Assembly (NCBI GenBank): GCA_037140415.1
Contig: JBAXEN010000001.1
Location: 1-45,384 of the forward strand
Source of the DNA: Betaproteobacteria bacterium
Lineage (GTDB): Bacteria; Pseudomonadota; Gammaproteobacteria; Burkholderiales; Burkholderiaceae_C
Length of the DNA stretch: 45,384 nt
Reading direction: 5' to 3'
Shown piece after piece: positions 25,298-41,731 of this stretch. The position numbers were made by a program, and so were the translations under genes. The notes beneath the pieces are model-generated. The model was not told where the DNA came from and ran no database searches. It was given only the letters and a program-made list of their open reading frames with translations. Numbering within the stretch: the first letter of the stretch is position 1; every line of letters starts with the position of its first letter.

Positions 25298-25326
25298 TTG
25301 ACCGCCTCAATTTTTGCATGCAAAAT
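25298..25326 (+). promoter_or_regulatory. Sigma70 promoter of the catabolic cluster overlapped by a palindromic operator
   Basis: TTGACC(25298)-17 nt-CAAAAT(25321); perfect palindrome TTTTGCATGCAAAA at 25312-25325. Confidence 0.65.
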
Positions 25327-25335
25327 TGCACACAT

Positions 25336-26553
25336 ATGTCTGAATCGCCTCCTCCATCCACCGGCAAGCCGCCTGAGTCCAAGCCCAAGGCCATGATTCG
25401 CAGCGGGGATGACTCCCCCGTTCTGAGCGACGAGCAGATCGAAGACGCCAAGAAACTCATCGGCGTCTGGCTGCGCCGCGATGTCCACACCCCCGCGATC
25501 TACGAGCCGCTGTCGGTGCACGACATCCGGCGCTGGGCCCACTACAGCGTGGGCGACGACAACCCCCTGTTTAGCGACGTCGAGTACGCCAAGCGAACCT
25601 CGCTGGGCGTGGTGGTGGCGCCCCCCACCTTTCTCTACACCATCGACAGCGGCATCATTGCGCCGGGTCTGCCAGGCATCCAGTGGATTTTTGCCGGCTC
25701 GCGCTTCGAGCATTTCCTGCCGGTCAAGGCGGGCGACACCATCACCGCCCGCGCCCGGCTGATTGATGTGCAGATCAAGTCCAGCCGCAACGTGGCGCGC
25801 TATGTCAATCAGGTGGGTGAGGTCCTCTATACCAACCAATATGGCCAATTGGTCACTCGCTATGAAGGTGACATCTACCGCATTCCGCGCAAGCGCAGTG
25901 GCGGTGGATTCAAGTTTGCCGTCAATAGCGCTGCCGAAGCCCCCAAGCCCTACCGATACACCGACGATGAAATCGAGGCCATCGCAGAGGGCTACCGCAG
26001 CGAATTTCGCCGTGGCAGCCAGGTGCTGTACTGGGAAGAGGTGCAGGCCGGCGACCTGTTGCCTGTGGTGCAAAAAGGCCCGCTGACCCTGGTCGACATC
26101 GTCGGCTTTTATTCGGGCCGCAGAACCGTCTACAGCGTCATGAAGCTGGCTTTTGCCGAACGCGACCGCCACCCGCGCAATGTCTACTACTCGCCCTCGC
26201 GCAACATTCCCATGCATCCGGCGGCAGGGCATTTTGATGCCGAGATCGCCCACGAGATCGGCATGCCTGGCGCCTACGACCAGGGTTGGCAGCGCATCAA
26301 CTGGGCCGGCCATATGCTGACCAACTGGTGCGGCGACCAAGGCTTTGTGCGCAAGCTCGAAGGCAAGGTGACCCGCCCCAACCTGGTCGGCGACCTCACC
26401 CGCATGCACGCCGAAGTCACCGGCAAGCGCAAGGACGCCAATGAGGCGCTGGTTGAAATTCGCTGGTGGGGCGAAAACCAGCGTGGCGAACAAAACTGTA
26501 GTGGTAAGGCCGAGGTGCGCCTGCCCTCGCGTGACATCAGCCTGCGCTGCTAA
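25336..26553 (+). CDS. Double hot-dog MaoC/FAS1-like acyl-CoA dehydratase
   Basis: DIRRWA..VGDDNPLF, APPTF, GHFD...A...G.PGAYD.G; alternative start ATG 25393 has an AAGG SD. Confidence 0.8.
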   Translation: MSESPPPSTGKPPESKPKAMIRSGDDSPVLSDEQIEDAKKLIGVWLRRDVHTPAIYEPLSVHDIRRWAHYSVGDDNPLFSDVEYAKRTSLGVVVAPPTFLYTIDSGIIAPGLPGIQWIFAGSRFEHFLPVKAGDTITARARLIDVQIKSSRNVARYVNQVGEVLYTNQYGQLVTRYEGDIYRIPRKRSGGGFKFAVNSAAEAPKPYRYTDDEIEAIAEGYRSEFRRGSQVLYWEEVQAGDLLPVVQKGPLTLVDIVGFYSGRRTVYSVMKLAFAERDRHPRNVYYSPSRNIPMHPAAGHFDAEIAHEIGMPGAYDQGWQRINWAGHMLTNWCGDQGFVRKLEGKVTRPNLVGDLTRMHAEVTGKRKDANEALVEIRWWGENQRGEQNCSGKAEVRLPSRDISLRC

Positions 26554-26567
26554 GGAGCAATAACAAA

Positions 26568-27779
26568 ATGCGTAAACCGCTAGAGGGCATCAAGGTGCTC
26601 GACCTCACCCACGGCGTGGCCGGGCCCTACTGCACCATGGTGCTGGGCGATCTCGGCGCCGAGATCATCAAGATCGAAAAACCCGAGCGCGGTGACGCCA
26701 CGCGCTACATGAACGTCAGCGACCGCTTTCACACCGACATCCCCAAGGTGGGCGGCGATTATTTTCTGGCCATCAACCGCAACAAGCGCAGCATGGCGCT
26801 TGAGCTCAAAACCCCAGAAGGCCGCCAGATCTGCGAGGAGCTTGCCGGCTGGGCCGACATCGTGGTGCAAAACTTCCGCCCGGGTGTGACGGGCCGACTC
26901 GGGCTGGACTACGCCAGCCTCAAGCGCTTTAACCCCAGGCTGATCTACGCCAACATCTCGGCCTATGGCATGGGCGGTGCCCACGCCGACAAGGCCGGCA
27001 TGGACATCGCCGTGCAGGCACGCTCGGGCCTGATGCGCATCACCGGCTCGCCCGACTCCAAAGAGCCAATGCGCGCTGGCGCGTCCATGGCCGACTTTGG
27101 CGGCGGCATCTACCTGGTGACGGCAGTGCTTGCCGCGCTCTACGACCGCGAGCGCACCGGCGAGGGCCAAGAGGTCAGCGTCTCCCTGATGGATGCGACC
27201 ATGAGCCTGCTGATCAACTATTCGGTAGCCGTGATGGACGGGGGCGCTGAGGTCGCACCGCTGGGCTCGGGGCACCCGCAGCTGGTGCCCTACCAGTCCT
27301 TCCCCACCCGCGACGGCTTTGTGGTGGTGGCCACTGGCACCAACAAAACCTACCGCACCTTTTGCGATGCGATCGAGCGGCCCGACCTCAGCGTCGACCC
27401 GCGCTTTGCCTCCAACCAGAGTCGGGTCAAGAATCGCGCTGCCATCGTCGCTGAGCTGTCCCAGGTGTTCAGCCAGCGCAGCACCGAGCAGTGGATTGCG
27501 ATTTTGGAAAAAGCCGACATCCCCTGCGCCCCGGTCAATGAGCTGGCCGATGCCTACGAGGAGCTGCGCAGCACCTCGCCCGATATGGTGACTCAGGTGC
27601 AGCACCCGCAGCTCGGAGGCCTGACGCAGCTGGGCGTGCCGTTTCGCTTTTCCAACTGCGGCGGCGACATCCGCCGCCCGCCCCCCATGCTCGGCGAGCA
27701 CACCGAAGAGGTGCTGGCGCAACTGCTCGGGCGCAGCAGCGAGGCCATCGCCACCTTGCGCGCGCAAAAAGTCATCTGA
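26568..27779 (+). CDS. CaiB/BaiF class III CoA-transferase
   Basis: PLEGIKVLDL..AGP, NRNKRS, NFRPG, catalytic-type Asp in MADFGGG, PPMLGEHT. Confidence 0.93.
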   Translation: MRKPLEGIKVLDLTHGVAGPYCTMVLGDLGAEIIKIEKPERGDATRYMNVSDRFHTDIPKVGGDYFLAINRNKRSMALELKTPEGRQICEELAGWADIVVQNFRPGVTGRLGLDYASLKRFNPRLIYANISAYGMGGAHADKAGMDIAVQARSGLMRITGSPDSKEPMRAGASMADFGGGIYLVTAVLAALYDRERTGEGQEVSVSLMDATMSLLINYSVAVMDGGAEVAPLGSGHPQLVPYQSFPTRDGFVVVATGTNKTYRTFCDAIERPDLSVDPRFASNQSRVKNRAAIVAELSQVFSQRSTEQWIAILEKADIPCAPVNELADAYEELRSTSPDMVTQVQHPQLGGLTQLGVPFRFSNCGGDIRRPPPMLGEHTEEVLAQLLGRSSEAIATLRAQKVI

Positions 27780-29923
27780 TGAACGGTGCGCTTGCAGCCG
27801 CTGCGGGTCAGCTGGGGGAGCGCTATGGCGACCCCTTGGATTTCATTTTCCATGCCCGCTCGATCGCTCTGATCGGCCTGTCGAGCGACCCCCGCAAAAT
27901 GACCGGCGCGCCGCTGGGCATCTTGCGGCAGACCGGATTTGCCGGGCCGATTTACCCCGTCAATCCCCGCGTTGCCGAGATCGGTGGCTTGCGCTCTTAC
28001 CCCAGCATTGCGTCCTTGCCGCAAGCGCCAGATGTGGCCATGATCATGCTTGGCGCCAAACACTGCGCTCAAGCGGTGCGTGAATGCGCGGCCAAAGGCA
28101 CCCGGGCGGTGGTGGTGCTCAGCTCAGGCTTTGAAGAAACCGACGGTGGCCAGCAGGCCGCTGCCGAGCTGCTGGCTGCGGCGCGCGAGAGCGGCGTGGC
28201 GGTGGTCGGGCCCAATTGCGAGGGCGTGTGGTCGGTGGCCCCGCGCGTGGTGCTCACCTTTGGGTCCGCGGCCAAGCGTGATGTGCTGACCCATGCGCCG
28301 GTGGCGATCTTGTCGCAAAGCGGGGCCATGGCCGGGGCCATCGCGCGGCACCTGCAAAACGACGCCATAGGTTGCGCCTACATGGTCTCGGTGGGCAACG
28401 AGACCGTCCTGACCCTGGCCGACTACATGGAGTGGATGATCCGCCAGCCCGATGTGCGGGTTCTGCTGCTGTTCATTGAAGGGCTGCGCGATGGCGAGCG
28501 CCTGGTGCGCTTGATTGGCCAGGCCACCGCACGCGGCATACGGGTGGCAGCGCTCAAGTCGGGCAACTCTAAAGCCGGCGTCGAAGTGGCGGCCTCCCAC
28601 ACCGGCAAGATTGCCAGCGACTACCAGGTCTACCGCGACCTGCTTGCGGGCGCTGGTGCAATTTTGGTCGACAGCCTGACCGATTTGATTGCTGCCGGTG
28701 AGGTCTTGAGTGTGGCGCCGGATCCGGCGGCGCGGCTGCCAGAACTGAGCCAACCCAGCGAGCGCGGCGTGGCGGTGTTCAGCATCCCCGGCGGCACCCG
28801 GGCCTTGACGGTGGACCAATGCGAGGCCCACGGGGTGCCGTTGTCGACCTTTGCCCGCAGCACGGTGGCGCAGCTTAGTGCCGCCCTGCCCGAATTCGGG
28901 GGTGTTGAAAACCCCACCGACCTGACCGGCCAGGTGCTGTCGCACCAGGGGCTGTTTGACCAGACCTTGTCCATCATCGCGGCCGATCCAAACACCGAGG
29001 CGCTGATTGTTCAGGTGGCCAATCGCGGCCCCAGCGATGTGATCGAGCGCACCGAACTGCTGGGCCAGATGGCCCGCGACACTGGGGTGCCGGTGATCGC
29101 CACCTTTTTGGGCGACAGCCTGCCAGCCGCAGACCGAGCCCGGCTGCGCGCGCACAAAGTGCTGTGTGCCCGCGATCCGGCCGAGGCCGCGCTGTTTCTC
29201 GGCTGGCTGTACCGGGCTCGGGCGGCGGCAGCGCAGCCCCTGGCGCCCGCGCCCACCCCTCTGGCCGATGCCCCAGCGCCAGCCGATTGGGCCTCCACCA
29301 TGGCCTGGCTGCAGGCTTGCGGCATTGCGGTGCCGCCTTGGCGTGAGCTGGCCGCAGGCGATGATGTGGCGCAGGTGTGCGCCGGCATGGCGCGGGTGGC
29401 GGTCAAGGCGCTGCCTGAAGATGCGGCCCACAAAACCGAGGCTGGGCTGCTGGCCCTGGATGTGCAGGGTGCGAAGGCGATTGCGCAGGAGGCCGCCCGC
29501 ATACGCCAGGCGCTGGGCAAGCCCCAGGCCCGCATCCTGGTGCAGGCCATGGTGGAAGGCGGCGTTGAAGTGGTGCTGGCTGCTCGCCATAACCCCGACT
29601 TCGGCCCGGTGATGGCCATTGGCCTGGGCGGCATCGCGGTGGAACTGTTTCAGGACATCACCTGGCTGGCTTTGCCCACCAGTGAGGCCGCCGTTCGCAA
29701 AGCCCTGGCTCGCCTGAAGCTGGCCCAGGTGCTGGCGGGCTTTCGCGGCAAACCCCCCGCCGATGCGCAGGCCTTGGTTCGGGCTGCAGTAGCATTTGGC
29801 CAGCGCTTTGTCGCCACCCGACCCAGCCTGGCTGAGTTCGAAATCAACCCCCTGCTGGTGCTGGCTCGCGGTGTGGTGGCCGTCGATGCCTTGCTGGCCA
29901 ACACTGCCCAGGCGCAGCCATAG
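27779..29923 (+). CDS. ADP-forming acyl-CoA synthetase (fused AcdA/B, ATP-grasp)
   Basis: IYPVNP, GPNCEG, SQSG, phospho-His motif ASHTG, NPTDL, HKTE, EINPL. Confidence 0.9.
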   Translation: MNGALAAAAGQLGERYGDPLDFIFHARSIALIGLSSDPRKMTGAPLGILRQTGFAGPIYPVNPRVAEIGGLRSYPSIASLPQAPDVAMIMLGAKHCAQAVRECAAKGTRAVVVLSSGFEETDGGQQAAAELLAAARESGVAVVGPNCEGVWSVAPRVVLTFGSAAKRDVLTHAPVAILSQSGAMAGAIARHLQNDAIGCAYMVSVGNETVLTLADYMEWMIRQPDVRVLLLFIEGLRDGERLVRLIGQATARGIRVAALKSGNSKAGVEVAASHTGKIASDYQVYRDLLAGAGAILVDSLTDLIAAGEVLSVAPDPAARLPELSQPSERGVAVFSIPGGTRALTVDQCEAHGVPLSTFARSTVAQLSAALPEFGGVENPTDLTGQVLSHQGLFDQTLSIIAADPNTEALIVQVANRGPSDVIERTELLGQMARDTGVPVIATFLGDSLPAADRARLRAHKVLCARDPAEAALFLGWLYRARAAAAQPLAPAPTPLADAPAPADWASTMAWLQACGIAVPPWRELAAGDDVAQVCAGMARVAVKALPEDAAHKTEAGLLALDVQGAKAIAQEAARIRQALGKPQARILVQAMVEGGVEVVLAARHNPDFGPVMAIGLGGIAVELFQDITWLALPTSEAAVRKALARLKLAQVLAGFRGKPPADAQALVRAAVAFGQRFVATRPSLAEFEINPLLVLARGVVAVDALLANTAQAQP

Positions 29924-29935
29924 GACGATGAGGAC

Positions 29936-30742
29936 ATGAGCGATCTGAACCCGACAAGCAGTCCTGAAGCCAGACCCTTGGCGGGGCGCACCGCCGTGGT
30001 CACCGGTTCGGGCCGCAACATTGGGCGTGCCATCGCGATGGCCCTGGCCAGGGACGGGGCCAATGTGGTCATCAACGGTCATGGCAAGCCCGAGGCATTG
30101 GAGGCGGTGGCTGCGCAAGCCCGGGCTTTTGGGGTCCAGGCCATGGTGGCCGTGGCCGACGTGGGCGATCCCAGTGCTGTTGCGGCCATGGTCGATGCAA
30201 CGGTTCAGCGCTTTGGCAGCTTGGACATCGCGGTCTCCAACGTCTCGGTGCGCCTGCACCAGCCCTTTCTCGACATCAGCATCGATGACTGGCAGCGTGT
30301 CATCAACACCAACCTGAGTTCAGCGTTTTACCTGGCGCGCGCCTGCCTGCCGCACATGGTCAGCCGGCAATGGGGCCGGATCATCCACATCTCGGGACGC
30401 GATGGCTTTTCGCCCAAACCCAACCGGGCCCACAATGTGACCGCTAAGGCCGGTGTGTTTGCCCTGGCCAAGGCGATTGCCACCGAGTTCGGTCCCATGG
30501 GCATTACCGCCAATGCGGTGGCGCCGGGCATCGTGGATACCGAGCGTGACCTGAACCACTATCCGGACGTCACCAACGCGGCCCTGCAAAACAGCTTTGC
30601 GGTGCGCAAGGCGGCCATGCCGCTGCGACGCTTCGGCCATGTCGATGAGATCGGGGCGGCCTGTAGCTATTTGTGTTCGGAGGCGGGTGGCTTCATGACC
30701 GGCCAGATCCTGCACCTCAATGGCGGCGAGTTCATGTTCTGA
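29936..30742 (+). CDS. SDR family oxidoreductase, atypical active site
   Basis: TGSGRNIG, NAVAPG, TGQILHLNGG; NVTAK in place of YxxxK. Confidence 0.88.
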   Translation: MSDLNPTSSPEARPLAGRTAVVTGSGRNIGRAIAMALARDGANVVINGHGKPEALEAVAAQARAFGVQAMVAVADVGDPSAVAAMVDATVQRFGSLDIAVSNVSVRLHQPFLDISIDDWQRVINTNLSSAFYLARACLPHMVSRQWGRIIHISGRDGFSPKPNRAHNVTAKAGVFALAKAIATEFGPMGITANAVAPGIVDTERDLNHYPDVTNAALQNSFAVRKAAMPLRRFGHVDEIGAACSYLCSEAGGFMTGQILHLNGGEFMF

Positions 30743-30802: not shown

Positions 30803-32194
30803 ATGAACACACGTCCTGCTGGAGTGACCGATGCGATGGCCGACTTTGCGGTCGGCCACAGGCCCTATCCGGCACTGGCCCGCCAGCGTGCGCTGGACGC
30901 GATGATCGATTGCCTGGCTTGCATGTACGCGGGCAGTCGCGAGCCCTTGGCGGCGCCCCTGCTCAAGGTGCTGCCGACCGCGGACGGCGAGTCGCAGCGC
31001 TATCCCGCGCTGTTCATCGGTACCGGGCGCTATGGCTCGGCTGCTGATGCGGCGCTCTACAACGGCGCCGTTGCCCATGCGCTGGACTATGACGACACCA
31101 ACCATCCGGCCTATGCCCACCCCAGCGCGGTGCTGTTGCCGGCCTTGCTGGCGGCGGCCCGGATGGCCGGTGCCAGCGGCAGCGAACTGATAGACGGCTA
31201 TATCGCCGGCTTTGAAATTTTCGGCAAGCTCGGCCGCGCGATGAACACCCAGCACTACAAGCGCGGCTGGCATGCGACCTCGAGTTTTGGCACGCTGGCC
31301 GCAACCGTTGCGATCGCTCGTATCTTGAAGCTCAGTCATCGCCAGACGGTGATGGCGCTCGGGATTGCGGCCTCCTCGGCCTCGGGTCTGCGGGCCAATT
31401 TCGGCAGCATGGTCAAACCCTTGCACGCCGGCTATGCAGCCCGCAATGCGGTGCTGGCTGCGCTGCTCGCGCGCGAGGATTTTGATGCGGCGCCACAGGC
31501 GCTGGAGCACCCCTATGGCTATCTGTCGGTGTTCAACGCCGGCATCGGCTTTGACACGGCTCCCCTGATGGCGCTGGGTGAGGACTTGGAGATCCTCACC
31601 GAGCACGGCCTGGCGCTCAAGCCCTATCCAGCCTGCGGGGCCACGCACCCTGGCATCGAAGCGGCGCTGAGCCTGCATCCGCAGTTGGCAGGCGAGGGCA
31701 TTGCTCAGGTTCAGGCGGGTGTCTGTGAGATGGCCTTCTCGCCCCTGATCTACGTCATGCCCCATACCCCGCTGGAGGGCAAATTCAGCCTGCATTACTG
31801 CATTGCGGCAGCCCTGGTGTTTGGTGAGGTGAACCTGTCGACCTTCACAGACGCCAAGGTGGCCGATCCGCGTGTGCGCAGCCTGATTCCAAAAATCTCG
31901 ATGAAAACCGATGAGCGCTGGCGAGATGACAGCGAGTTTGCAACCGAAGTCATCGTCACCACCGAAACCGGCAGACGCTTAGCCCGGCACATTGCGCTGG
32001 CCGCGGGCAAGCCCGATCGCTGGTTCAGCCCAGAGCAGTTACGCGCGAAATTCGATGACTGCACCCACGCCTTCGGCAGTGCCTTCCAGCACCGGGTATT
32101 CACCGCTTTGCGTGGGCTCGACAGCGCTGATGATGTGTTGCCCTTGATCGAGCAGTTGCGACTTCAGGAGCCGGCGTCGCAGCGGGCCGCGTGA
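30803..32194 (+). CDS. MmgE/PrpD family protein
   Basis: HALDYDD..HP, RGWHAT, KPLHAG, KPYPAC..TH, KFS. Confidence 0.92.
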   Translation: MNTRPAGVTDAMADFAVGHRPYPALARQRALDAMIDCLACMYAGSREPLAAPLLKVLPTADGESQRYPALFIGTGRYGSAADAALYNGAVAHALDYDDTNHPAYAHPSAVLLPALLAAARMAGASGSELIDGYIAGFEIFGKLGRAMNTQHYKRGWHATSSFGTLAATVAIARILKLSHRQTVMALGIAASSASGLRANFGSMVKPLHAGYAARNAVLAALLAREDFDAAPQALEHPYGYLSVFNAGIGFDTAPLMALGEDLEILTEHGLALKPYPACGATHPGIEAALSLHPQLAGEGIAQVQAGVCEMAFSPLIYVMPHTPLEGKFSLHYCIAAALVFGEVNLSTFTDAKVADPRVRSLIPKISMKTDERWRDDSEFATEVIVTTETGRRLARHIALAAGKPDRWFSPEQLRAKFDDCTHAFGSAFQHRVFTALRGLDSADDVLPLIEQLRLQEPASQRAA

Positions 32195-32244: not shown

Positions 32245-33213
32245 ATGAAAGCAGCCTCCCCACTGGTCAGCCTCGCAGCCGCTGCGATGCTTGCCCTAGC
32301 CCCTCTGGCCCAAGCGCAGGACTATCCTAGCAAGCCTGTGCGTCTGGTCGATCCTTATGCGCCCGGCGGCTCCACCAGCGTGGTCTCGCAAGCCCTGTCC
32401 AAAAAATTCCAGGAATACACCGGTCAGCCTATGGTGGTGGACCACAAACCCGGCGCGGGCAGCAACATCGGCGCTGAAATCGTCGCCAAGTCAGCGCCCG
32501 ACGGCTACACCGTCTTGGTTGCGGCCAGCAGCTTGGCCATCAACCCGAGCCTGTACCGCAATATGGCCTTTGACCCCATCAAGGATCTGGCGCCGATTGC
32601 CATGCTGATTCGCACGCCCAATGTGCTGGCGGTTCATCCGGCCTTGCCGGTGCGCAGCACCGCCGAGCTGATCGCTTATGCCAAGGCCAATCCCGGCAAG
32701 CTCAACTACGGCTCTTCCGGCAACGGCGCGACCAACCACATGGCGGCAGAACTCCTCAAGGTACTGGCCAAGGTGGAGATGCAGCATGTTCCTTATAAAG
32801 GCGGCGGTGAGGCCATGGCGGCGCTGCTCAGCGGCCAGGTTCAGGTGCTGTTCAACCCGGCATCGACCTTGGCCCCTCAGGACAAGGCCGGGCGCCTGCG
32901 CATGATTGCGGTGGGCAGTGCCGAGCGCGTGCCGGGGCTCAATCTGCCCACGCTGGCCGAGTCTGGCCTGCCCGGCTTTCAGTCGGATGTGTGGTTTGCC
33001 CTGCTCGCGCCTGCAGGTACGCCCGCACCGGTGATCGCCAAGCTCAATGCGCTGACCAATCGCATCCTGAAGGATCCGGCGGTGACGGCCACTTTGAACA
33101 AGGCCGGCCTGGAGCCCGTCGGCGGCAGTGCCGAGGACATGGCCAAATTGCTCAAAGCAGATACCGCGCGCTGGGCCGAGGTGGTCAAGAGCGCCGGCAT
33201 CAAGATCGAATAA
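32245..33213 (+). CDS. Bug/TctC substrate-binding protein
   Basis: Signal peptide, PYAPGGST, KPGAGSNIG, HVPYKG. Confidence 0.93.
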   Translation: MKAASPLVSLAAAAMLALAPLAQAQDYPSKPVRLVDPYAPGGSTSVVSQALSKKFQEYTGQPMVVDHKPGAGSNIGAEIVAKSAPDGYTVLVAASSLAINPSLYRNMAFDPIKDLAPIAMLIRTPNVLAVHPALPVRSTAELIAYAKANPGKLNYGSSGNGATNHMAAELLKVLAKVEMQHVPYKGGGEAMAALLSGQVQVLFNPASTLAPQDKAGRLRMIAVGSAERVPGLNLPTLAESGLPGFQSDVWFALLAPAGTPAPVIAKLNALTNRILKDPAVTATLNKAGLEPVGGSAEDMAKLLKADTARWAEVVKSAGIKIE

Positions 33214-33249
33214 GTCGCCACCCATCGTCTCGAGTTCAGTGCCCCCCAG

Positions 33250-33996
33250 ATGACCACCGATTCCATGCCTCCCCCTGAGGAGGTGCTCGATGTGCTGGTA
33301 CAGAGCACTTACCAGGCGATCAAGGATGCAATCCTGGGTAACCGCTTGCGGCCTGGACACAAGTTGATTCATCAGGCGCTGGCCGAAAACCTGGGCGTCT
33401 CGCGAACGCCGGTGCGCGAGTCGCTGGAGCGTCTGTACCAGGAAGGCTATGTGACGCGCATTGCCAACCGCGGCTACTTTGTCGCGGAGATCGATGTGCA
33501 GGAGGTCCGCGACCTCTACCAGACGCGCGAGGCGCTGGAGGTTTTTTCCCTGCAACTCATCTTCAAAGCGGGCCTGCAAAGCCAGGCGCTGTCCCAACTC
33601 GAAGCCATCAACGCGCGGTATAAAAAGCTGTGCATGGAAAGCCTGAGCCGAGAGCGTTTGCTGGTGGACCGGGAGTTTCATCTGGCGCTGGCATGGCTGT
33701 CGGGCAACCGGTACCTGCACAAGACGCTCAGCAGCATCTTTGATCGACTGATCCTCAAACGCCGGGTCGAGGGATTTCACGATCTGCGGGGCATTGAGCC
33801 CTACAAAGACCATGTCAGTTTGCTGGCGGCCATCGAGTCTGGCGACGAGGCAGCCGCACTCGACTTGCTCAGCGCGCACATCACCGGCGCCAGTGCCCGC
33901 TTCATCCAATACCTCGAGCCCGCTGTGGCCTCGACATCAGGCATCGCTGGGCCTGCTCGCAAGGCCAAGTCTGCGCTCAAGAAAGCAGGGTCCTGA
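33250..33996 (+). CDS. GntR/FadR (FCD) transcriptional regulator
   Basis: wHTH LAENLGVSRTPVRESL; FCD motifs DREFH, GNRYL. Confidence 0.93.
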   Translation: MTTDSMPPPEEVLDVLVQSTYQAIKDAILGNRLRPGHKLIHQALAENLGVSRTPVRESLERLYQEGYVTRIANRGYFVAEIDVQEVRDLYQTREALEVFSLQLIFKAGLQSQALSQLEAINARYKKLCMESLSRERLLVDREFHLALAWLSGNRYLHKTLSSIFDRLILKRRVEGFHDLRGIEPYKDHVSLLAAIESGDEAAALDLLSAHITGASARFIQYLEPAVASTSGIAGPARKAKSALKKAGS

Positions 33997-33997
33997 G

Positions 33998-35377
33998 ATG
34001 CCGGTCACCCGTGTGCTTGTGGCCAATCGGGGCGAAATTGCGCTGCGCGTGATCAGGGCTTGCCAGCAGATGGGCCTAGAAACCGTGCTGGCCGTGTCTG
34101 CAGCCGATCGCGACAGCCTGCCTGCTCGGCTGGCCGATCAGGTGCTGTGCATAGGTCCTGCGCCCGCAGCGCAAAGTTACCTGCAGATCCCCGCGCTGAT
34201 CATGGCTGCCATGGGCTCTGGTGCTGACGCCTTGCATCCCGGCTATGGATTTCTGTCGGAGTCGCCGGAGTTGGCCACAGCCTGCGCAGAGGCTGGGCTG
34301 GTTTTTGTGGGTCCTAGAGCGGACAACATCCGCGACATGGGCAACAAGCTGCGAGCGCGCGAGAAGGCGCAGGCCTTTGGACTGCCCTTGTTGCCCGGCT
34401 CCGAGCAGGTGTGCAGCTGGCAGGAGGCGCTGGCCGTCGCGGAGCAGATCGGCTTTCCGGTTTTGCTCAAGGCGGCGGCCGGTGGTGGCGGCAAGGGCAT
34501 GAAAGTGGTCCGCGAGGGTGCTCAGATGCAGGCCCTGTTTGAAGCGGCGACCGGCGAGGCCGCGGCCTCCTTTGGCGACAACACGCTGTATTTGGAGCGC
34601 TATATCGACAGGGCCCGCCACATCGAGGTACAGGTGCTCGGTGACGATTATGGCCAGGTGATTCATTTGGGCGAGCGCGATTGCTCCTTGCAGCGCAGGC
34701 ATCAGAAACTGGTGGAGGAATCGCCAGCGCCGGCGCTCTCGGACGCCTTGCGGGGCGAGATCTGTCAAGCGGCCGTGACCTTGGCAAAAAACATAGGCTA
34801 TGTCAGTGCGGGCACGGTGGAGTTCATCTACGACGAAGCGCTCGGGCATTTTTACTTCCTGGAAATGAACACCCGGATACAGGTGGAACACCCGGTCACT
34901 GAGATGGTCACCGGCATTGATCTGGTGCAGGAGCAATTGCGGGTGGCGCGCGGCGAGAAGCTGCGCTTTGCCCAGAGCGATCTTGTGTTTCGGGGCCATG
35001 CGATCGAGTGCCGCATCAACGCCGAGCTTCCCCTGGAGGGCTTCAGGCCCAGCCCTGGGCGCATCAGCCAATGGTCGCCGCCGCAGGGGCCCAATATCCG
35101 GCTGGACAGCCATTGCCACGAAGGCTATTTAGTGCCCCCTTATTACGACTCGCTGATGGCCAAGCTGATTGTGTATGGCGTTAATCGGCAAGAGGCGATT
35201 GAGCGCATGGTCCGGGCCTTGAAGCAATTTCAGGTGCAAGGTCCAGGCACGACCATCGACTTTTTGGGGCATGTGGTGGCCCATCCAGAGTTTGCGCAGG
35301 GCCGGGTCACCACCGGCTTGGTCGAGCAGTTGATCGAGGAATTTGCCCTAGAGCAGGAGCGCTTGCATGCGCCCTGA
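33998..35377 (+). CDS. Biotin carboxylase subunit
   Basis: VLVANRGEIA, HPGYGFLSE, GGGGKGM, ERDCSLQRRHQK, EMNTRIQVEHPVTE. Confidence 0.95.
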   Translation: MPVTRVLVANRGEIALRVIRACQQMGLETVLAVSAADRDSLPARLADQVLCIGPAPAAQSYLQIPALIMAAMGSGADALHPGYGFLSESPELATACAEAGLVFVGPRADNIRDMGNKLRAREKAQAFGLPLLPGSEQVCSWQEALAVAEQIGFPVLLKAAAGGGGKGMKVVREGAQMQALFEAATGEAAASFGDNTLYLERYIDRARHIEVQVLGDDYGQVIHLGERDCSLQRRHQKLVEESPAPALSDALRGEICQAAVTLAKNIGYVSAGTVEFIYDEALGHFYFLEMNTRIQVEHPVTEMVTGIDLVQEQLRVARGEKLRFAQSDLVFRGHAIECRINAELPLEGFRPSPGRISQWSPPQGPNIRLDSHCHEGYLVPPYYDSLMAKLIVYGVNRQEAIERMVRALKQFQVQGPGTTIDFLGHVVAHPEFAQGRVTTGLVEQLIEEFALEQERLHAP

Positions 35378-35462
35378 GTGGCGCGCCTGTCAGGGGGCAT
35401 TGGCGTCAAGCCTTGCCTAGGCCATGGCGGCTGCCTCGGGTCATGCAGCTGACAGTCCGGCA

Positions 35463-35491
35463 TGGACGCCTGCCGGTTCTGTGCGCACAAT
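35463..35491 (+). promoter_or_regulatory. Candidate internal sigma70 promoter
   Basis: TGGACG-17 nt-CACAAT in the largest gap of the cluster; TGTGCGCACA palindrome at 35480-35489. Confidence 0.4.
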
Positions 35492-35592
35492 GATTCGCGT
35501 TGACGCTGGCACGAAGAGGCAAAACCCGCGCTGCCGCAGATCGCCAGGCCTTGCGCCAAGCGGGCGAGGTGAGAAAAAAGCACGAGGAGGAG

Positions 35593-36576
35593 ATGAATAT
35601 GTTCAAACGGATTCTTGGTTCCTTGGCCTTGGCCGCAACTGGCGCGCTGAGCCTGACTGCACTCGCGCAGGACTACCCGGCAGCGCCGATACGGGTGGTG
35701 ATCCCTTATGCGCCGGGCGGCGGCAGTGACATCCTGGCACGTCCAGTGGGGGTTTATATCGAAGGCGCGCTCAAGCAGCCGGTGGTGATCGATAACAAGG
35801 GCGGCGCGGGCGGCAATATCGGCTCGGAGTTTGTGGCACGGTCGGCGCCCAATGGCTATACCTTGCTGCTGGCCAACAACTCCCAGGTGATCAATCAGTT
35901 CGTCTATAAAAGACCGGGCTATGACATGGAAAAGGACTTCGCGCCGATCTCGCTACTGGGCACCTCGCCCACCGTGGTGGTGGTCAACAAGTCCCTGCCG
36001 GTCAATTCCATCCGGGAGTTGATCGAGTACGCGCAGAAGAATGAAGGCAAGCTCAACTTCAGCAGCGCAGGGGTAGGCACTCCGGGGCACCTGGCTGGTC
36101 TGCTGTTTAACAAGCAGGCCGGTCTGAACATTGTTCATGTGGCCTACAAGGGAACCGGACCTGCGATCCTGGCTTTGCTGCAAAACGAGGTGCAGGTCCA
36201 TTTTGCGACGCCAGCGGCGGCCGATCCGCATGTGAAGTCGGGCGAATTCAAGGCCCTGGCGGTGACGTCGCAGGGCCGTTTTGCCCAACTGCCCAACCTG
36301 CCTACCGTGGCCGAGTCGGGTGTGCCTTCATTGCGTGATTACCACATCGATGTCTGGTGGGGCCTGCTCGCCCCGGCGGGCACGTCGGCGTCCATCCTTG
36401 AAAAACTCAATGCCTCGGTGGCTGCTGCCCTGCGCGATCCCAAGTTGCGCGACAGTTGGCTCTCGCGCGGCATGGTGCCCACCAGCAATTCGGTGGTGGC
36501 CTTTCAAAGCTTGATCAGAAGCGACCTGCAGAAATGGGAAAAGCTGGTGCGCGACAACGATATCAAGGTCGATTGA
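35593..36576 (+). CDS. Bug/TctC substrate-binding protein
   Basis: GAGGAGG SD, signal peptide, PYAPGGGSD, HVAYKG. Confidence 0.93.
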   Translation: MNMFKRILGSLALAATGALSLTALAQDYPAAPIRVVIPYAPGGGSDILARPVGVYIEGALKQPVVIDNKGGAGGNIGSEFVARSAPNGYTLLLANNSQVINQFVYKRPGYDMEKDFAPISLLGTSPTVVVVNKSLPVNSIRELIEYAQKNEGKLNFSSAGVGTPGHLAGLLFNKQAGLNIVHVAYKGTGPAILALLQNEVQVHFATPAAADPHVKSGEFKALAVTSQGRFAQLPNLPTVAESGVPSLRDYHIDVWWGLLAPAGTSASILEKLNASVAAALRDPKLRDSWLSRGMVPTSNSVVAFQSLIRSDLQKWEKLVRDNDIKVD

Positions 36577-36618
36577 CTCCACACTTTATCTTCGGTCAGT
36601 CATGAATTGGATAGACAC

Positions 36619-38100
36619 ATGGGACGTCTGATCACCATCAGGGACACCACGCTGCGCGACGGCCATCAGTCGCTGTGGGCCACGCGCATGTCCACCGAGA
36701 TGATGCTACCGGTGGCCCGCCACATCGAGCGCTCTGGCATCAACTCGGTCGACATCATGGCGCACGTGATCATCGACTCGGCGGTGCGATTTACCAAGGA
36801 CAACCCCTGGGATCGGGCCAATGCGCTGCGCAAACTCATGCCCACGCCCGACATGGCCGGCTACACGGCAGGCAAGGTGGCCTGGGGTTTCAGGTTGGCT
36901 CCCACCGACATCCTGGAGCTGTGTACCGAACTGACGATACGCAACGGCGTCAACATGGTCACCGCCATGAACGGCTTGCTCGATCTGGACATGATGGTCG
37001 ACCAACTCAAGCAGGCCAAAGCCCTGGGTGCCAAGACGGCGGCAGCGCTGGTCTACTCGATCAGCCCGGTGCACACCGACGCGCTTTATGAGGAAAAAGC
37101 CCGCGCCCTGGTCGAACGCGCCGATGTCGACTACATCATGATCAAGGACTCCGGCGGGCTGATCACGCCCGACGCAGCCGGCTCCTTGTTTGACGCGGTC
37201 CGCCGTGGCGCGGGCCGCAAAAAGATCACATTGCACAGCCACGCCATGACGGGCATGGCTGGTCGGGTCTACATGATCGGCGTCGATCACGGCGTGGACG
37301 ACCTGCAATGCGGAGTTTGGCCGCTGGCGCAAGGCGCGGCCCAGCCCTCGACCCAGATGGTGGTCAAGAATTTGCGGGCCAAGGGCTATCAGGTCGATAT
37401 CGATGACGAGCAGATCGAGGCTATCAGTCAGCACCTGATTGCCGTGGCCAAGCGCCATGGTTTTCCTTTGGGCGGGCCGGTCGAATACGACGACACGCAC
37501 TACGAGCATCAGATTCCGGGCGGCATGCTCAGCAATTTGCGATCGCAGCTGGCCGATGCGAATTTGCTGGAGCGCTTTCCCGAATTGGTGGGTGAAATTA
37601 AGCGGGTCAGGGCCGAATTGGGCTGGCCCACCATGGTCACCCCGTTCGCGCAATTGGTGGCCAACCAGGCGCTCTTCAATGTGGTCACGGGTGAGCGCTA
37701 CGGCACGGTGCCCGACGAAATCACCCACTATGTGCTCGGTCACTATGGCCAGTTGCTGGCGCCGGTCGATGCGAATGTGCTCGATAAGATCCTGTCCAAG
37801 AGCTCGGCCGATGCCCGGCTAGCTCCCTGGGACATGCCGCCAGCGCTGCCGGAGCTGCGCAAGCGCTACCCCCATGCCAGCGATGAAGAGCGCTTTCTGC
37901 GCTACATGATTCCCGAGGCAGCGGTGGAGGACATGCTCAAACGCCAGGGCGATGCCAAAGCGCAGGACAGCGCGCGCAGGCGTGATTTCGGCCCCATCAG
38001 CAGCGCCTTGGTGCAGCTGATGGCCAAGGCGGCGAGCATGAGCGATGTCGGTGAGGTCGACATCCGCAGCGGCGATCTGCGCCTGCGTGTGGTGCGCTAA
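36619..38100 (+). CDS. Stand-alone carboxyltransferase, pyruvate carboxylase B / oxaloacetate decarboxylase alpha / 5S type
   Basis: DTTLRDGHQSL, IKDSGG, HSH, HQIPGGMLSNL, PTMVTP; no biotinyl domain. Confidence 0.9.
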   Translation: MGRLITIRDTTLRDGHQSLWATRMSTEMMLPVARHIERSGINSVDIMAHVIIDSAVRFTKDNPWDRANALRKLMPTPDMAGYTAGKVAWGFRLAPTDILELCTELTIRNGVNMVTAMNGLLDLDMMVDQLKQAKALGAKTAAALVYSISPVHTDALYEEKARALVERADVDYIMIKDSGGLITPDAAGSLFDAVRRGAGRKKITLHSHAMTGMAGRVYMIGVDHGVDDLQCGVWPLAQGAAQPSTQMVVKNLRAKGYQVDIDDEQIEAISQHLIAVAKRHGFPLGGPVEYDDTHYEHQIPGGMLSNLRSQLADANLLERFPELVGEIKRVRAELGWPTMVTPFAQLVANQALFNVVTGERYGTVPDEITHYVLGHYGQLLAPVDANVLDKILSKSSADARLAPWDMPPALPELRKRYPHASDEERFLRYMIPEAAVEDMLKRQGDAKAQDSARRRDFGPISSALVQLMAKAASMSDVGEVDIRSGDLRLRVVR

Positions 38101-38103
38101 GCC

Positions 38104-39516
38104 ATGGACAAGGTCTGGCCCACCCCGCAGGAGGCGGTTCGTGACATCAGCGAGGGCGCCAGCATTGCGATTGCCGGCTTCAGCGTTGACCATGGTTTTG
38201 CTGTCAGCCTGATCCAGGCCCTGAAGGATCAGGGCACAAAAAGGCTGTGCATCGTCTGCAACTCGCTGGGCGCCCCTGGGCAGTTGCGGCCTCAGATTCT
38301 GGTGGAGAACCAGCAGGTCAGCCGCTTGATTGCCTCGTTCTCGGCCCGCCCCGGCGTGCCCACCGACGCTGAGCGCCAGATCGCCAGCGGCGAGATCTCG
38401 CTGGAGTTGGTCCCCCAAGGCACCTTGGTCGAGCGCCTGCGCGCCGGTGGCGCCGGCATCGCCGCCTTCTACACCCAGGCCGGGCTGGATACGGCCATCG
38501 CACGTGGCAAGGAGGTGCGCGAATTCAAGGGCCAACGCTATCTGATGGAAGAGGCGCTGACGGTGGACTACGCCTTTCTCAGTGCCTGCCGGGCCGACCG
38601 CGCCGGCAACCTGGAATTTCGCGGCGGTAGTCAAAGCTTTAACCCGAGTTTTGCCAAGGCAGCGCGGGTGGCCATTGCCGAGGTCGATGAAATCGTTGAA
38701 GTCGGGCAGATCCCGCCCGAGCGCATAGGCTTGCCGGGCATTTTTGTCTCCCGGGTGGTGCAGCGTGTGCTGCAGCCCGATCCGCCAGGCGCACGCAAGA
38801 AGCGGCGTGGTGATGACACCTTCAAGACCTATCACGGCAAGCCGGGGCTGTCGCGCATGGACATTGCCCGCCGCGCCGCTTTGCTGCTCGATGACCACAG
38901 CTATGTCAATTTAGGCGTAGGCATTCCCACCCTGATCGCTAACCACATCGGCAGCAAGGACCTGATGCTGCATGCCGAAAATGGCATCCTCGGCTACGGC
39001 CCCTTGCCGGCCGATCAGCCCATTGACCGCGACCATTACAACGCCAGCGGTGAGTTCGTCGGGCTGATTCCAGGGGCCTCTTTCTTTGACAGCGTGACCT
39101 CCTTTGAAGTCGCCCGCTCCGGCCGGCTTGCCGCGGTGGTGCTCGGTGCCTACCAGGTGGACGCTCAGGGCAATCTGGCCAATTGGTCGACGCCGAACAT
39201 GGTCGGTGGCGGCATTGGCGGTGCGATGGACCTGATCGCCAGCCCCAGCCGTCTCATCATCTTGATGGAGCACACCGACAGCAAGGACAGGCCCAAGCTC
39301 GTTGCGCAATGCACCTTCCCACTGACCGCCGAGCGCCGTGTGGACACGGTGGTGACCGATCTGGCGCTGCTGCGGCGGGTCGATGGCGTGTTCTGGCTCG
39401 AGGAGATCGCACGCGGCTTTGAGCTTGAGGAGGTGCTTGCGTTGACGCCGATGGGCGTGCGTGTGGCGCCTCAGGTCGGCGTCATGCAGGACGCATTTGA
39501 GACGAACCAGGCCTGA
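38104..39516 (+). CDS. Fused 3-oxoacid CoA-transferase (A+B subunits)
   Basis: PQGTLVERLRAGGAGI, YVNLGVGIP, catalytic-type Glu in AENG, GGAMDL. Confidence 0.92.
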   Translation: MDKVWPTPQEAVRDISEGASIAIAGFSVDHGFAVSLIQALKDQGTKRLCIVCNSLGAPGQLRPQILVENQQVSRLIASFSARPGVPTDAERQIASGEISLELVPQGTLVERLRAGGAGIAAFYTQAGLDTAIARGKEVREFKGQRYLMEEALTVDYAFLSACRADRAGNLEFRGGSQSFNPSFAKAARVAIAEVDEIVEVGQIPPERIGLPGIFVSRVVQRVLQPDPPGARKKRRGDDTFKTYHGKPGLSRMDIARRAALLLDDHSYVNLGVGIPTLIANHIGSKDLMLHAENGILGYGPLPADQPIDRDHYNASGEFVGLIPGASFFDSVTSFEVARSGRLAAVVLGAYQVDAQGNLANWSTPNMVGGGIGGAMDLIASPSRLIILMEHTDSKDRPKLVAQCTFPLTAERRVDTVVTDLALLRRVDGVFWLEEIARGFELEEVLALTPMGVRVAPQVGVMQDAFETNQA

Positions 39517-39551
39517 GTCCTCGGATTGAATCTATGGAAAGAGCCCAAACC

Positions 39552-40079
39552 ATGCCAATGTCCCACGAAGAAATTCTCGATATCCTCGATGCGATTGACA
39601 AGATGAATTGCGCCTCGGTGGAGGTGACGCTGGGTGATGTGAGCATTGCGGTACACCGGGGCCAGGCCCCTGCGGCGCGCAGCGCCGAGGCGCCACAGGC
39701 CCAACACATGCCATCGGTTCATGCGCAAGCGCGCGCCAACCCGCAGCCCTCGCAAGCCGCTCCTGCTGCGTCGCGGGCGCAAGCTCAACCGAACGCTGAT
39801 CTGGCGCCCTGGCTGGAGCGGGAGGCTCAAGGGCAGGTTCGCATCGTGCGCGCCCCGATGATCGGCACTTTCTACCGGGCCAAAGCCCCGGGCGAGCCGG
39901 CTTTCGTTGAGGTGGGCCAGACGGTGAGCCCAGGCGATACCCTGGGCTTGATGGAGGTGATGAAGTTGTTCAATTCGCTGCTCGCCAATGCGGCCGGAAC
40001 GGTCGATGCCATCCTGGCGGGCAACGGCGATCTGCTGGAATTCGATCAGCCGGTTTTTGTGATCAGGACCGCTGTATGA
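39552..40079 (+). CDS. Biotin carboxyl carrier protein
   Basis: Ala/Pro linker, APMIGTFY, biotinylation motif EVMKL. Confidence 0.93.
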   Translation: MPMSHEEILDILDAIDKMNCASVEVTLGDVSIAVHRGQAPAARSAEAPQAQHMPSVHAQARANPQPSQAAPAASRAQAQPNADLAPWLEREAQGQVRIVRAPMIGTFYRAKAPGEPAFVEVGQTVSPGDTLGLMEVMKLFNSLLANAAGTVDAILAGNGDLLEFDQPVFVIRTAV

Positions 40080-40128
40080 ACCGACAGACGCGCAACACGG
40101 GCTGCCGCGGCCCAGGGAGCAGCACCCC

Positions 40129-41292
40129 ATGAGCCGGTCGATGGCCTATATCGTCGGTGCTTACGAGCACCCCACCCGCAAAGCGCCCGACAAATCGGTC
40201 GCCCAGCTGCATGCCGAGTGCGCCCGCGGCGCTCTGGCCGACGCCGGCCTGAGTCTGCGCGATGTCGATGGCTATTTCTGCGCCGGCGACGCGCCGGGCC
40301 TGGGCGCGCTCAATATGGCCGATTACCTGGGCCTGAACTGCCGGCACATTGATTCGACCGACACCGGCGGATCTTCTTATCTGGTTCATGTGGCCCATGC
40401 GGCGCAGGCGATTGCCGCCGGCAAGTGCCATGTTGCGCTGATCACCCTGGCCGGAAGGCCTCGCTCCGAGGCCACCAACGGCACCCGCCAGCGCGACGCC
40501 AGGCCCAATGTGCCCGATGAGCCCTTCGAGCTGCCTTATGGCGTGGTGACGGTGAACAACTACGCCTTGGTTGCAGCCCGACATATGCACGATTGGGGAA
40601 CCACGCCTGAGCAGCTGGCCTGGATCAAGGTGGCCGCTTCGCGGCATGCGCAGCACAACCCCCATGCGATGCTGCGCGATCCGGTCAGCCTCGATGATGT
40701 GCTCGCATCGCCCTTGATTTCTGATCCGCTGCGGCGCATGGACTGCTGTGTGGTGAGCGACGGCGGCGGTGCCCTGGTGGTCACCCGCCCTGAAATCGCC
40801 CGCACGCTCAAGCAGCCGCTGGTGGCGGTGCGCGGCACTGGCGAGGCCATCAAAGGCCTGGATGGCGGGCGCATCGATCTGTCTTATTCGGCGGCCGCCT
40901 GGTCGGGCCGGGCGGCTTTTGAGCAAGCCGGTGTGACGCCGGCAGACATTCAATACGCATCGATCTACGACAGCTTCACCATCACCGTGTTGGTGCAGCT
41001 CGAAGACCTGGGCTTTTGCGCCAAGGGCGAGGGCGGGCGCTTTGTCGCTGACGGCAATCTGATTTCAGGTGTCGGCAGGCTGCCGGTCAATACCGACGGT
41101 GGCGGGCTGTGCAACAACCATCCGGCCAACCGTGGCGGCATCACCAAGGTCATTGAGGCGGTCCGACAATTGCGAGGGCAGGCCCATCCGGCGGTACAGG
41201 TCAAGGACTGCACCCTGGCCCTGGCGCAGGGCATGGGGGGCTATCTGGGCACCCGCCACGGCAGCGCCACCTTGGTACTGGAAAGGCTGTAA
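40129..41292 (+). CDS. SCP2/Ltp2-type thiolase-like protein
   Basis: DCCVVSDGGGA, IYDSFT, LEDLGFC.KGEGG, VNTDGGGL, EAVRQLRG. Confidence 0.9.
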   Translation: MSRSMAYIVGAYEHPTRKAPDKSVAQLHAECARGALADAGLSLRDVDGYFCAGDAPGLGALNMADYLGLNCRHIDSTDTGGSSYLVHVAHAAQAIAAGKCHVALITLAGRPRSEATNGTRQRDARPNVPDEPFELPYGVVTVNNYALVAARHMHDWGTTPEQLAWIKVAASRHAQHNPHAMLRDPVSLDDVLASPLISDPLRRMDCCVVSDGGGALVVTRPEIARTLKQPLVAVRGTGEAIKGLDGGRIDLSYSAAAWSGRAAFEQAGVTPADIQYASIYDSFTITVLVQLEDLGFCAKGEGGRFVADGNLISGVGRLPVNTDGGGLCNNHPANRGGITKVIEAVRQLRGQAHPAVQVKDCTLALAQGMGGYLGTRHGSATLVLERL

Positions 41293-41296
41293 ACCC

Positions 41297-41698
41297 ATGA
41301 GCACTCCTTGGCAAGCAAGAATTGCGACAGAGCCGGCGGTCTATCCGGAGACCGAGGCCTTCTGGCAGGCGGCCAATGAAGGTCGGCTGCTGCTCAAACG
41401 CTGCGTGGACTGCGGGCAATTTCATTGGTATCCCCGCGCCATCTGTCCGTTTTGCGCCAGCGACCGCACCGAGTGGGTACAGGCCAGCGGCAAGGCCGTG
41501 GTGTATTCAGTCACCGTCAGCCGCAAGTCGGGCCCTGTGCCTTACGCCCTGGCCTATGTGACCCTGGAAGAAGGGGTGACGATGCTCAGCAACATCGTCG
41601 AGTGCGATTTGGATGCGGTGCGCATCGGCGATGCGGTCGAGCTGACCTTCGTGAGCACCGCGGCCGGCCACGCGATCCCCGTCTTTCGCCCCGCCTGA
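41297..41698 (+). CDS. DUF35 Zn-ribbon/OB-fold protein
   Basis: FWQA, CxxC...PR..CPxC, PYALAYV.LEEG, PVFRP. Confidence 0.92.
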   Translation: MSTPWQARIATEPAVYPETEAFWQAANEGRLLLKRCVDCGQFHWYPRAICPFCASDRTEWVQASGKAVVYSVTVSRKSGPVPYALAYVTLEEGVTMLSNIVECDLDAVRIGDAVELTFVSTAAGHAIPVFRPA

Positions 41699-41731
41699 TC
41701 AGCCCCTGAGCGCAGCTCGGCAAGCGCCGGA

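Follow-up and report, generated by a model that had tools for sequence, protein, structure and literature searches.

Since 2022, biotin-dependent ketone carboxylation has been demonstrated in kinase-dependent pathways that act on lignin-type aryl ketones. The three-subunit HpeCBA of Rhodococcus rhodochrous GD02 is reported, on biochemical evidence, to carboxylate methyl ketones at a cost of 1 ATP per turnover (PMC9618137). AcvCDE has been described from Sphingobium SYK-6 (bioRxiv 10.1101/2022.04.28.489975) and, in a version with MarK, from Novosphingobium (PMC12624787). Expression in E. coli is reported to be poor for both HpeCBA and AcvCDE (PMC9618137, bioRxiv 10.1101/2022.04.28.489975). XccABC of Aromatoleum aromaticum EbN1 is a predicted system whose subunits are named in conflicting ways: xccC is the carboxyltransferase (CT) and xccA the biotin carboxylase (BC) in PMC9618137, and XccA and XccC, respectively, in bioRxiv 10.1101/2022.04.28.489975. 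As given in these sources, the Acv/Hpe gene set comprises a kinase or MarK, the biotin carboxyl carrier protein (BCCP), BC, CT, and an HAD phosphatase (PMC9618137, bioRxiv 10.1101/2022.04.28.489975, PMC12624787). Here, we analyzed a related gene cluster in a 45,384-nt stretch of DNA from a Betaproteobacteria bacterium (contig JBAXEN010000001.1 of assembly GCA_037140415.1; hereafter, the window). Judged from its genes, the cluster encodes a biotin enzyme built from three subunits as in Hpe, Acv, and Xcc, and we consider it probable (about 0.65) that this is an ATP-dependent carboxylase whose substrate is an unphosphorylated ketone and whose product, a beta-keto acid, is passed to a 3-oxoacid CoA-transferase of the SCOT type.

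Like the Hpe, Acv, and Xcc systems, the window has separate BC, BCCP, and stand-alone PycB-like CT (~490 aa) genes and encodes a CoA-activating enzyme for the predicted beta-keto acid. Unlike Hpe and Acv, it has a fused SCOT where those have an acetoacetate-type CoA ligase and a thiolase-like/DUF35 pair lacking the nucleophilic Cys where those have HpeF/VceB, and neither a kinase nor an HAD phosphatase was found in its genome, which is 91.5% complete. No described kinase-free member of the family was found in the open-access literature; the design is known from HpeCBA/AcvCDE, and the CT subclade, the kinase-free SCOT-coupled context, and the substrate were not found there.

Carboxylase genes and the carboxyltransferase active site

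The features of the carboxylase region are as follows.

33998..35377, + strand: BC, 459 aa (Pfam Biotin_carb_N, CPSase_L_D2, and Biotin_carb_C)
35596..36576, + strand: Bug/TctC solute receptor directly upstream of CT (Pfam TctC)
36619..38100, + strand: stand-alone TIM-barrel CT, 493 aa (Pfam HMGL-like and PYC_OADA)
37915..38100, + strand: C-terminal helix and beta-hairpin tail of CT, a candidate docking module (structure model and tail HMM)
38104..39516, + strand: fused two-domain SCOT-type 3-oxoacid CoA-transferase, 470 aa (CoA_trans), starting 3 nt past the CT stop
39552..40079, + strand: BCCP with the biotinylation Lys in an EVMK motif (Pfam Biotin_lipoyl)

The BC, CT, and BCCP genes are all intact and on the + strand. 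Their starts (33998, 36619, and 39552) and their separation by Bug and SCOT genes were as given in a preliminary description made from the sequence; a further in-frame ATG precedes the BCCP gene at 39534. The best PDB matches of the gene at 38104..39516 were SCOTs, and its profile scores were 209 for TIGR02429 (cut-off 128.5, passed) and 222 for TIGR02428 (cut-off 243.55).

The assignment of the CT to the metal-dependent TIM-barrel type, and not to the acyl-CoA type, was borne out by the HMGL-like and PYC_OADA domains and by RDGHQ at residues 13–17, K176, and HSH at 206–208. Its AlphaFold model (pLDDT 86) matched PycB, the transcarboxylase 5S subunit, and OadA in Foldseek with a TM of ~0.81, and identity to these proteins was ~29% in the structural alignment. 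Like PycB (5ks8), OadA (2nx9), and 5S (1rqb), the CT has the TIM-barrel and funnel fold, RDxxQ, the carbamyl-Lys, HxH, and VTP, and residues 5–160 aligned with the three without gaps. Unlike them, it carries no biotinyl domain, as already described (no Biotin_lipoyl match on CT), and no OadB was found to accompany it. The WGGATFD segment of these enzymes is absent; DIMAHVIID lies against it gap-free, in agreement with the divergent N-terminal substrate region noted before. The pyruvate-binding Arg, the FD-motif Asp, and the KDM-Met are replaced as well.

In L. lactis pyruvate carboxylase (PC), the residues given as metal ligands are Arg533, Asp534, carboxy-Lys703, His732, and His734, and Thr867 is also named (PMC9581989). 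Placed on the CT by motif and spacing, not by direct pairwise alignment, these correspond to R13, D14, K176, H206, H208, and T341, respectively. In a residue table of 73 rows, after removal of one unpublished row, R13, D14, Q17, K176, H206, H208, and T341 were invariant in 15/15 rows of the window CT clade. Arg606 of the L. lactis enzyme is reported to bind pyruvate/oxaloacetate, and its mutation to abolish PC activity (PMC9581989). Its column held Arg in 10/10 PC/PycB/OadA rows and in 0/15 clade rows, the window CT having Ala84. Among the other groups, Arg was found in 0/6 Acv-type proxies, 18/18 sister-group rows, 11/11 rows linked to BKACE, and 6/8 rows of a second kinase-linked group; a fifth small group was unreliably aligned there. 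The FD-motif Asp was lost only in the window clade (0/15; Asn118 in the window CT), and His49 and Lys86 occurred in 12/15 and 7/15 clade rows, respectively, with Arg13 and Gln17 retained. As the metal, Lys, and Thr residues are invariant while the Arg and the FD-Asp are lost, the catalytic core is intact and the substrate pocket rebuilt. The dN/dS of CT against four orthologs was ~0.08–0.18, corresponding to purifying selection, and the pocket changes are therefore not decay. The exchange of Arg for Ala84, absent from the preliminary description, is more telling than the divergent N-terminal segment. Since the Arg is kept in sister groups, its loss argues against pyruvate and is alone no proof of a ketone.

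Among 7998 candidates scored, the CT homolog search gave 1068 matches; the 120 matches listed fell in tiers of 70–87% and 48–60% identity. In the main CT tree (74 rows, IQ-TREE quick mode, SH-aLRT support only), a stem of 1.06 (support 100) set all stand-alone CTs of ~490 aa apart from PycB/OadA. The window CT clade (support 100, stem 0.54) paired with the Arg-retaining sister group (support 99) and stood apart from Acv-type and other kinase-linked CTs. In both this tree and an earlier FastTree, one row of the outgroup came from G294, a genome not yet published; a 32-row tree without that row recovered the same groups. Approximately unbiased (AU) tests were run on the 32 rows with LG+G4; the tree held no 5S sequence. 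Gene-content proxies, namely loci with a kinase or MarK, BCCP, BC, CT, and an HAD phosphatase, stood in for the published HpeB, AcvE, and Xcc sequences in trees and tests. Grouping of the window clade with PycB/OadA, the refuting outcome set by the preliminary description, was rejected (p-AU 2.3e-07), as was one clade with the Acv proxies L011, L012, L013, and L160 (p-AU 0.0017), a group named only after viewing the FastTree. The window CT is thus placed by the trees on a separate branch of a large stand-alone-CT radiation that includes the Acv/Hpe-type proxies. Like the Hpe/Acv/Xcc proxies, the window CT and BC fall in the same radiations and the pyruvate-binding Arg is missing; unlike the Acv-type proxies, the CT lies in another subclade, with 37% identity to the L013 proxy and the pocket motifs MAHVIID, YTAGK, and MNG in place of TxSTHM, FxTTG, and xDP. 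In a 38-row BC tree, the window BC joined BCs of three-subunit loci (support 98), apart from PycA and from the genome's own AccC. The nearest BC relatives of the window clade (support 98) were those of L075 (G015:C28) and L165, whose CTs fall in another subgroup; SCOT subunits, a thiolase-like gene without the Cys, and an OB gene are likewise encoded at L075. This mismatch between BC and CT hints at CT exchange within a shared scaffold.

The window CT was the sole PYC_OADA match in the genome. A separate housekeeping accB-accC pair lies on contig C44, and the domain search found no crotonase-fold acyl-CoA CT partner among the cluster genes. These results, with the position of BC apart from the genome's AccC, confirm that the enzyme is not acetyl-CoA carboxylase; the rejected PycB/OadA grouping and the CT without a biotinyl domain likewise uphold the statement that it is not a housekeeping PC. 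The noted lack of OadB and OadG nearby held for OadB, as PF03977 (OAD_beta/OadB) was not found in the 91.5%-complete genome; no separate search for OadG was made. UPF0261/MarK and the HAD phosphatase proxy gave no match in the genome. The AcvAB-type kinase proxies matched one place only, on C260 (35–39%), which we infer to be an ordinary phosphoenolpyruvate synthase; otherwise no AcvAB/HpeHI-like kinase was found in the cluster or genome, consistent with the earlier reading, and AcvAB, MarK, and HAD proxy matches were also missing from the four close loci described below. One match to PF03099 (biotin/lipoate ligase family) was present in the genome.

The anticipated misannotation as accB/accC/pycB proved largely correct. 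BC exceeded the accC cut-off (TIGR00514, 633.8 vs. 626.5), whereas BCCP (111.8 vs. 115.2) and CT (PRK09282, 354 vs. 402) fell just short of theirs. The labels on relatives are "pyruvate carboxylase subunit B", accB, accC, or "oxaloacetate decarboxylase alpha".

The CT model ends in a helix (433–473) and two strands (479–484 and 487–492). A profile built from 225 CT C-termini scored at least 9 bits on 21/68 BCCP N-termini, and zero in each of 20 shuffles and zero reversed sequences did so, a control blind to a generic amphipathic helix-hairpin pattern. Against AccB of the same genome the profile reached only 2.4 bits, and against the 12 listed canonical PycB/OadA C-terminal regions no more than 1.3 bits. 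The window CT thus bears the tail like the Acv/Hpe proxies and unlike those 12 canonical rows, in which the motif was undetected. In a 674-aa natural fusion (P0136), a stand-alone-type CT with the tail is joined to the N-terminus and biotinyl domain of an AccB-type BCCP; this is one sequence only, belongs to another subgroup, and could be an artefact of sequencing or calling. Complex prediction with CT 425–493 and BCCP 1–45 scored 0.10 against a mark of 0.34, had no controls, and is evidence neither way. The CT tail resembles the BCCP N-terminus, and our hypothesis is that the two modules pair to assemble the split enzyme.

Gene neighbourhoods and distribution

The genome scan identified five further CT loci: four Comamonadaceae-labelled loci with close CTs (75–85%) and one Nocardioides-labelled locus (59%). 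The CT-SCOT-BCCP block was intact in 4/4 close loci, and SCOT directly followed CT in all of them. A Bug ortholog (68–82% identity to the product of the gene at 35596) preceded CT in 3/4. BC stood ahead of the block in 2/4 close loci and directly after BCCP in the other 2/4 (CT-SCOT-BCCP-BC). As the BC position varies among the close loci, the spacing seen in the window is a local rearrangement. The non-adjacency of the subunits, stressed in the preliminary description, is therefore true at this locus and incidental, and it was rejected as a meaningful trait of the enzyme.

All four close genomes hold the hydratase (79–88%), family III CoA-transferase, ACD block, and thiolase-like gene (72–87%) listed in the next section, sometimes on other contigs. 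Among 150 genomes of the genus, a close CT was present in one, which apparently duplicates the L002 record and does not count as independent, and relatives of 34–47% in four others. A close SCOT was present in one, the same genome, and the hydratase in two. The thiolase-like gene occurred in nine, of which only one has the close CT, and its value as a specific marker of the carboxylase is thereby weakened. In the Nocardioides-labelled genome, SCOT (64%), thiolase-like (62%), and OB genes are adjacent on another contig and a BCCP-BC pair lies on a third; no hydratase match was found there. In 400 genomes of the window's family, no match exceeded 45%. A metagenome scan with the clade alignment gave only 31–49% relatives (79 loci), so that neighbourhoods of the deeper clade members (P0015–P0032) come from one genome only; 250 genomes of that genome's order contained no further clade member. 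At L199 (G917:C2), the hydratase-to-GntR block occurs at 76–83% identity, followed by a second family III CoA-transferase and an enoyl-CoA hydratase.

BKACE, SCOT, and acetoacetate-CoA ligase were scored as beta-keto-acid enzymes in a wider survey; BKACE cleaves beta-keto acids. The survey comprised 86 stand-alone-CT loci of at least 8 kb, with two near-duplicates, canonical PycB/OadA loci, and loci <8 kb excluded. A beta-keto-acid enzyme was carried by 41/86 loci (SCOT in 7, BKACE in 29, and acetoacetate-CoA ligase in 5), a kinase by 13/86, and OadB by 0/86. One uniform, widespread standalone CT subfamily (many of L108–L154, L157–L159, L066, and L073) has GGAVFD, TRGQ, and VSP instead of VTP and lies beside BC, BCCP, BKACE, and SDR genes; it seems to mark a distinct pathway from ketone to beta-keto acid that has not been described. 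In a kinase-linked CT group (L009, L067, L152, L161, and L173), Tyr or Glu replaces the carbamylated Lys, and some of these loci carry three CT paralogs in tandem. In a named actinobacterial strain (L008, 8932–15616), a plasmid operon reads CT-BCCP-BC-BioY-ScoA-ScoB-classical thiolase, and the flank retrieved contains no kinase. Its CT retains the Arg; the operon is nevertheless a practical test case for kinase-free carboxylation.

Upstream genes, thiolase-like/DUF35 pair, and proposed pathway

The carboxylase genes belong to a co-directional catabolic run from ~24195 to 41698 of the window. The run consists, in order, of the genes from the first Bug to GntR below, the BC, Bug, CT, SCOT, and BCCP genes above, and the thiolase-like and DUF35 OB-fold genes.

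From ~24195, co-directional with the run: Bug receptor at the head of the run
25318..26553, + strand: double hot-dog (MaoC/FAS1-DH) hydratase-like protein (domain search), with the orthologs in 4/4 close CT-bearing genomes noted above
26568..27779, + strand: family III CoA-transferase, upstream module
27779..29923, + strand: ADP-forming acyl-CoA synthetase (ACD type), upstream module
29936..30742, + strand: SDR oxidoreductase, upstream module, with a close match in 3/4 close genomes
30803..32194, + strand: MmgE/PrpD family protein, best PDB match iminodisuccinate epimerase
32245..33213, + strand: Bug/TctC receptor, upstream module
33250..33996, + strand: GntR/FCD regulator, its stop 1 nt ahead of the BC start
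40129..41292, + strand: SCP2-thiolase-like protein without nucleophilic Cys, YDSF motif (PRK08142, 728 vs. 462)
41297..41698, + strand: DUF35/ChsH2-type zinc-ribbon and OB-fold partner of the thiolase-like protein (Pfam zf-ChsH2 and OB_ChsH2_C)

From the hydratase gene on, intergenic gaps are −1 to 60 nt, except for 218 nt between BC and the next Bug gene. A promoter and terminator scan gave counts not above those of shuffles (4 vs. 2.6 and 16 vs. 13.2, respectively). Contigs from two other DNA sequencing runs covered all 30 bins of 24000–42000, none spanning the whole interval; the search of sequencing runs listed no RNA run with the sequence, a result that has no bearing on expression. Elsewhere in the window, a minus-strand run at 11777–15747 encodes a trypsin-like protease, MoxR AAA, DUF58, and vWA proteins and looks ordinary.

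The thiolase-like protein (gene 40129) has Gly at the column of the nucleophilic Cys in the CASG/CATG thiolases of L009, L010, L153, and L173, and its best PDB matches were 4u4e, 9myr (Sal), and 6ok1 (Ltp2). Like Ltp2-ChsH2(DUF35) and Sal-Shy(DUF35) (6ok1 and 9myr; PMC12329534), the pair combines a Cys-less SCP2-thiolase fold, the YDxx Tyr, and an adjacent DUF35 gene. Unlike Ltp2 and Sal (YDHF or YDCY), the window protein has YDSF, Ser replacing His/Cys, and a His aligned with the second Tyr of Ltp2, and no steroid context surrounds it. According to PMC12329534, Cys-less proteins of this fold are incapable of thiolysis, Ltp2 and Sal use Tyr for retro-aldol cleavage, and Ser at the third YDxx position inactivates Sal (C304S). 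On this basis, the window protein may produce the ketone by retro-aldol cleavage, may act on the product as a hydrolase, or may have only a loose tie to the carboxylase.

In the proposed pathway, the upstream CoA-ligase/transferase/hydratase block would supply the ketone, and BC would carboxylate the BCCP-bound biotin from bicarbonate at the expense of ATP, the split enzyme being held together by the CT tail and the BCCP N-terminus. At the CT metal/carbamyl-Lys site the ketone would be enolised, with Thr341 as the proton shuttle, and CO2 transferred. SCOT would turn the beta-keto acid into a beta-ketoacyl-CoA. Either the Cys-less thiolase-like/DUF35 pair or a normal thiolase from another locus would then cleave this ester, giving acetyl-CoA and an acyl unit. 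An acid group on the ketone is suggested by the cluster's Bug receptors and CoA block, and the substrate is probably a methyl ketone of this kind.

We also considered, as a speculative and rather unlikely extension, that the genes of the cluster together form a so far undescribed bypass of a beta-methyl branch, with retro-aldol cleavage followed by carboxylation of a free aliphatic ketone. A branched dicarboxylate would be CoA-loaded and hydrated by ACD, family III CoA-transferase, MmgE, and the hot-dog hydratase, and a retro-aldol reaction of the thiolase-like/DUF35 pair would release acetyl-CoA and a methyl-keto acid from the tertiary 3-hydroxyacyl-CoA. The biotin enzyme, kinase-free and assembled through a CT tail mimicking the N-terminus of BCCP, would then add bicarbonate to this keto acid, and SCOT would activate the resulting beta-keto acid. 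An example would be 3-hydroxy-3-methyladipyl-CoA to levulinate to 3-oxoadipate, which parallels, at another chain length, the action of citramalyl-CoA lyase and pyruvate carboxylase. Levulinate itself had no direct support as the substrate. The same genome has a SCOT-pair and thiolase locus on C33, which we infer to be pcaIJF, and a second 3-oxoadipate transferase would therefore be redundant.

Alternative substrates and implications

The preliminary description had proposed a carboxylase for a non-pyruvate ketone or 2-oxoacid. Its non-pyruvate part is supported by the lost Arg and the AU test; of the two substrate classes a ketone is favoured, because the pyruvate-binding Arg has been lost and because no gene is linked more tightly to CT than that for a 3-oxoacid CoA-transferase; the activity is predicted. 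Bug receptors bind carboxylates, and their presence in the cluster would suit a 2-oxoacid such as 2-oxobutyrate or 2-oxoglutarate, with Lys86 or His49 taking the place of the Arg; its fold and metal site match 2-oxoacid CTs, Arg13 and Gln17 are kept, and His49 or Lys86 is present in part of the clade rows. However, the Arg is gone throughout the clade and also missing in the proxies of Acv-type ketone carboxylases, and the linked gene encodes a 3-oxoacid CoA-transferase and no dehydrogenase, so that we regard a 2-oxoacid as improbable. The three CoA-loading enzymes of the cluster (family III CoA-transferase, ACD, and SCOT) would fit a CoA ester or another activated carbonyl as the CT substrate, or an enzyme acting mainly as a decarboxylase or transcarboxylase with SCOT ahead of CT, and a pocket minus two charged residues (Arg84 and Asp118) could accommodate a bulkier group. 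No TIM-barrel CT in this superfamily is known to use acyl-CoA, and the dedicated, conserved BC, co-inherited in 4/4 close loci, fits ATP-driven carboxylation; there is little chance that this explanation holds. An anaplerotic, divergent split PC could explain why the window CT is the only PYC_OADA gene found and why OadA, PycB, and 5S are its best PDB matches. Nevertheless, it is extremely improbable, given the rejected grouping with PycB/OadA, the absence of Arg, WGGATFD segment, and fused biotinyl domain, the restriction of the close ortholog to 1/150 genus genomes, and the location of the genes in a catabolic island.

Several points weigh against a kinase-free ketone carboxylase. HpeCBA requires a phosphorylated substrate, being active only on phospho-ketones according to PMC9618137, and a kinase-free version is therefore an extrapolation. 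Kinase and carboxylase genes are reported to be often unlinked (52/836 clusters; PMC13101465), and in a genome of this completeness the kinase and phosphatase of an Hpe/Acv-like phospho-ketone enzyme could be missing from the assembly or come from a family that has not been recognised. This is very unlikely, because no AcvAB, MarK, or HAD proxy matches were found in the genome or the four close loci and because the CT did not form one clade with the Acv proxies, to one of which it is 37% identical. HpeB, AcvE, and Xcc were themselves represented by gene content and not by real sequences. The loss of the Arg is no family-wide marker of ketone use, every sister-group and BKACE-linked row retaining it. 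The close orthologs come from four related genomes, and the upstream block occurs without the carboxylase in G917 (93% complete). In the survey, 45/86 loci had no beta-keto-acid enzyme in the fetched flank, and the loci are non-independent and have no background rate. Finally, the catalytic Cys is absent from the thiolase-like protein, which leaves the cleavage step unexplained.

The cluster is likely a relative, so far unstudied, of the carboxylases for lignin ketones that were described in 2022. Since it also encodes a regulator and three solute receptors, substrate discovery by ligand screening is practical. Many of the best profile matches among 50%-identity representatives are stand-alone CTs with rewritten pockets, and, if the proposed function is true, a large gene set now labelled pycB/oadA/accBC would be corrected. 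A kinase-free member would also offer an inexpensive biocatalyst that forms C-C bonds and fixes CO2 with free ketones as substrates, and would mean that phosphorylation is not intrinsic to biotin-dependent ketone carboxylation.

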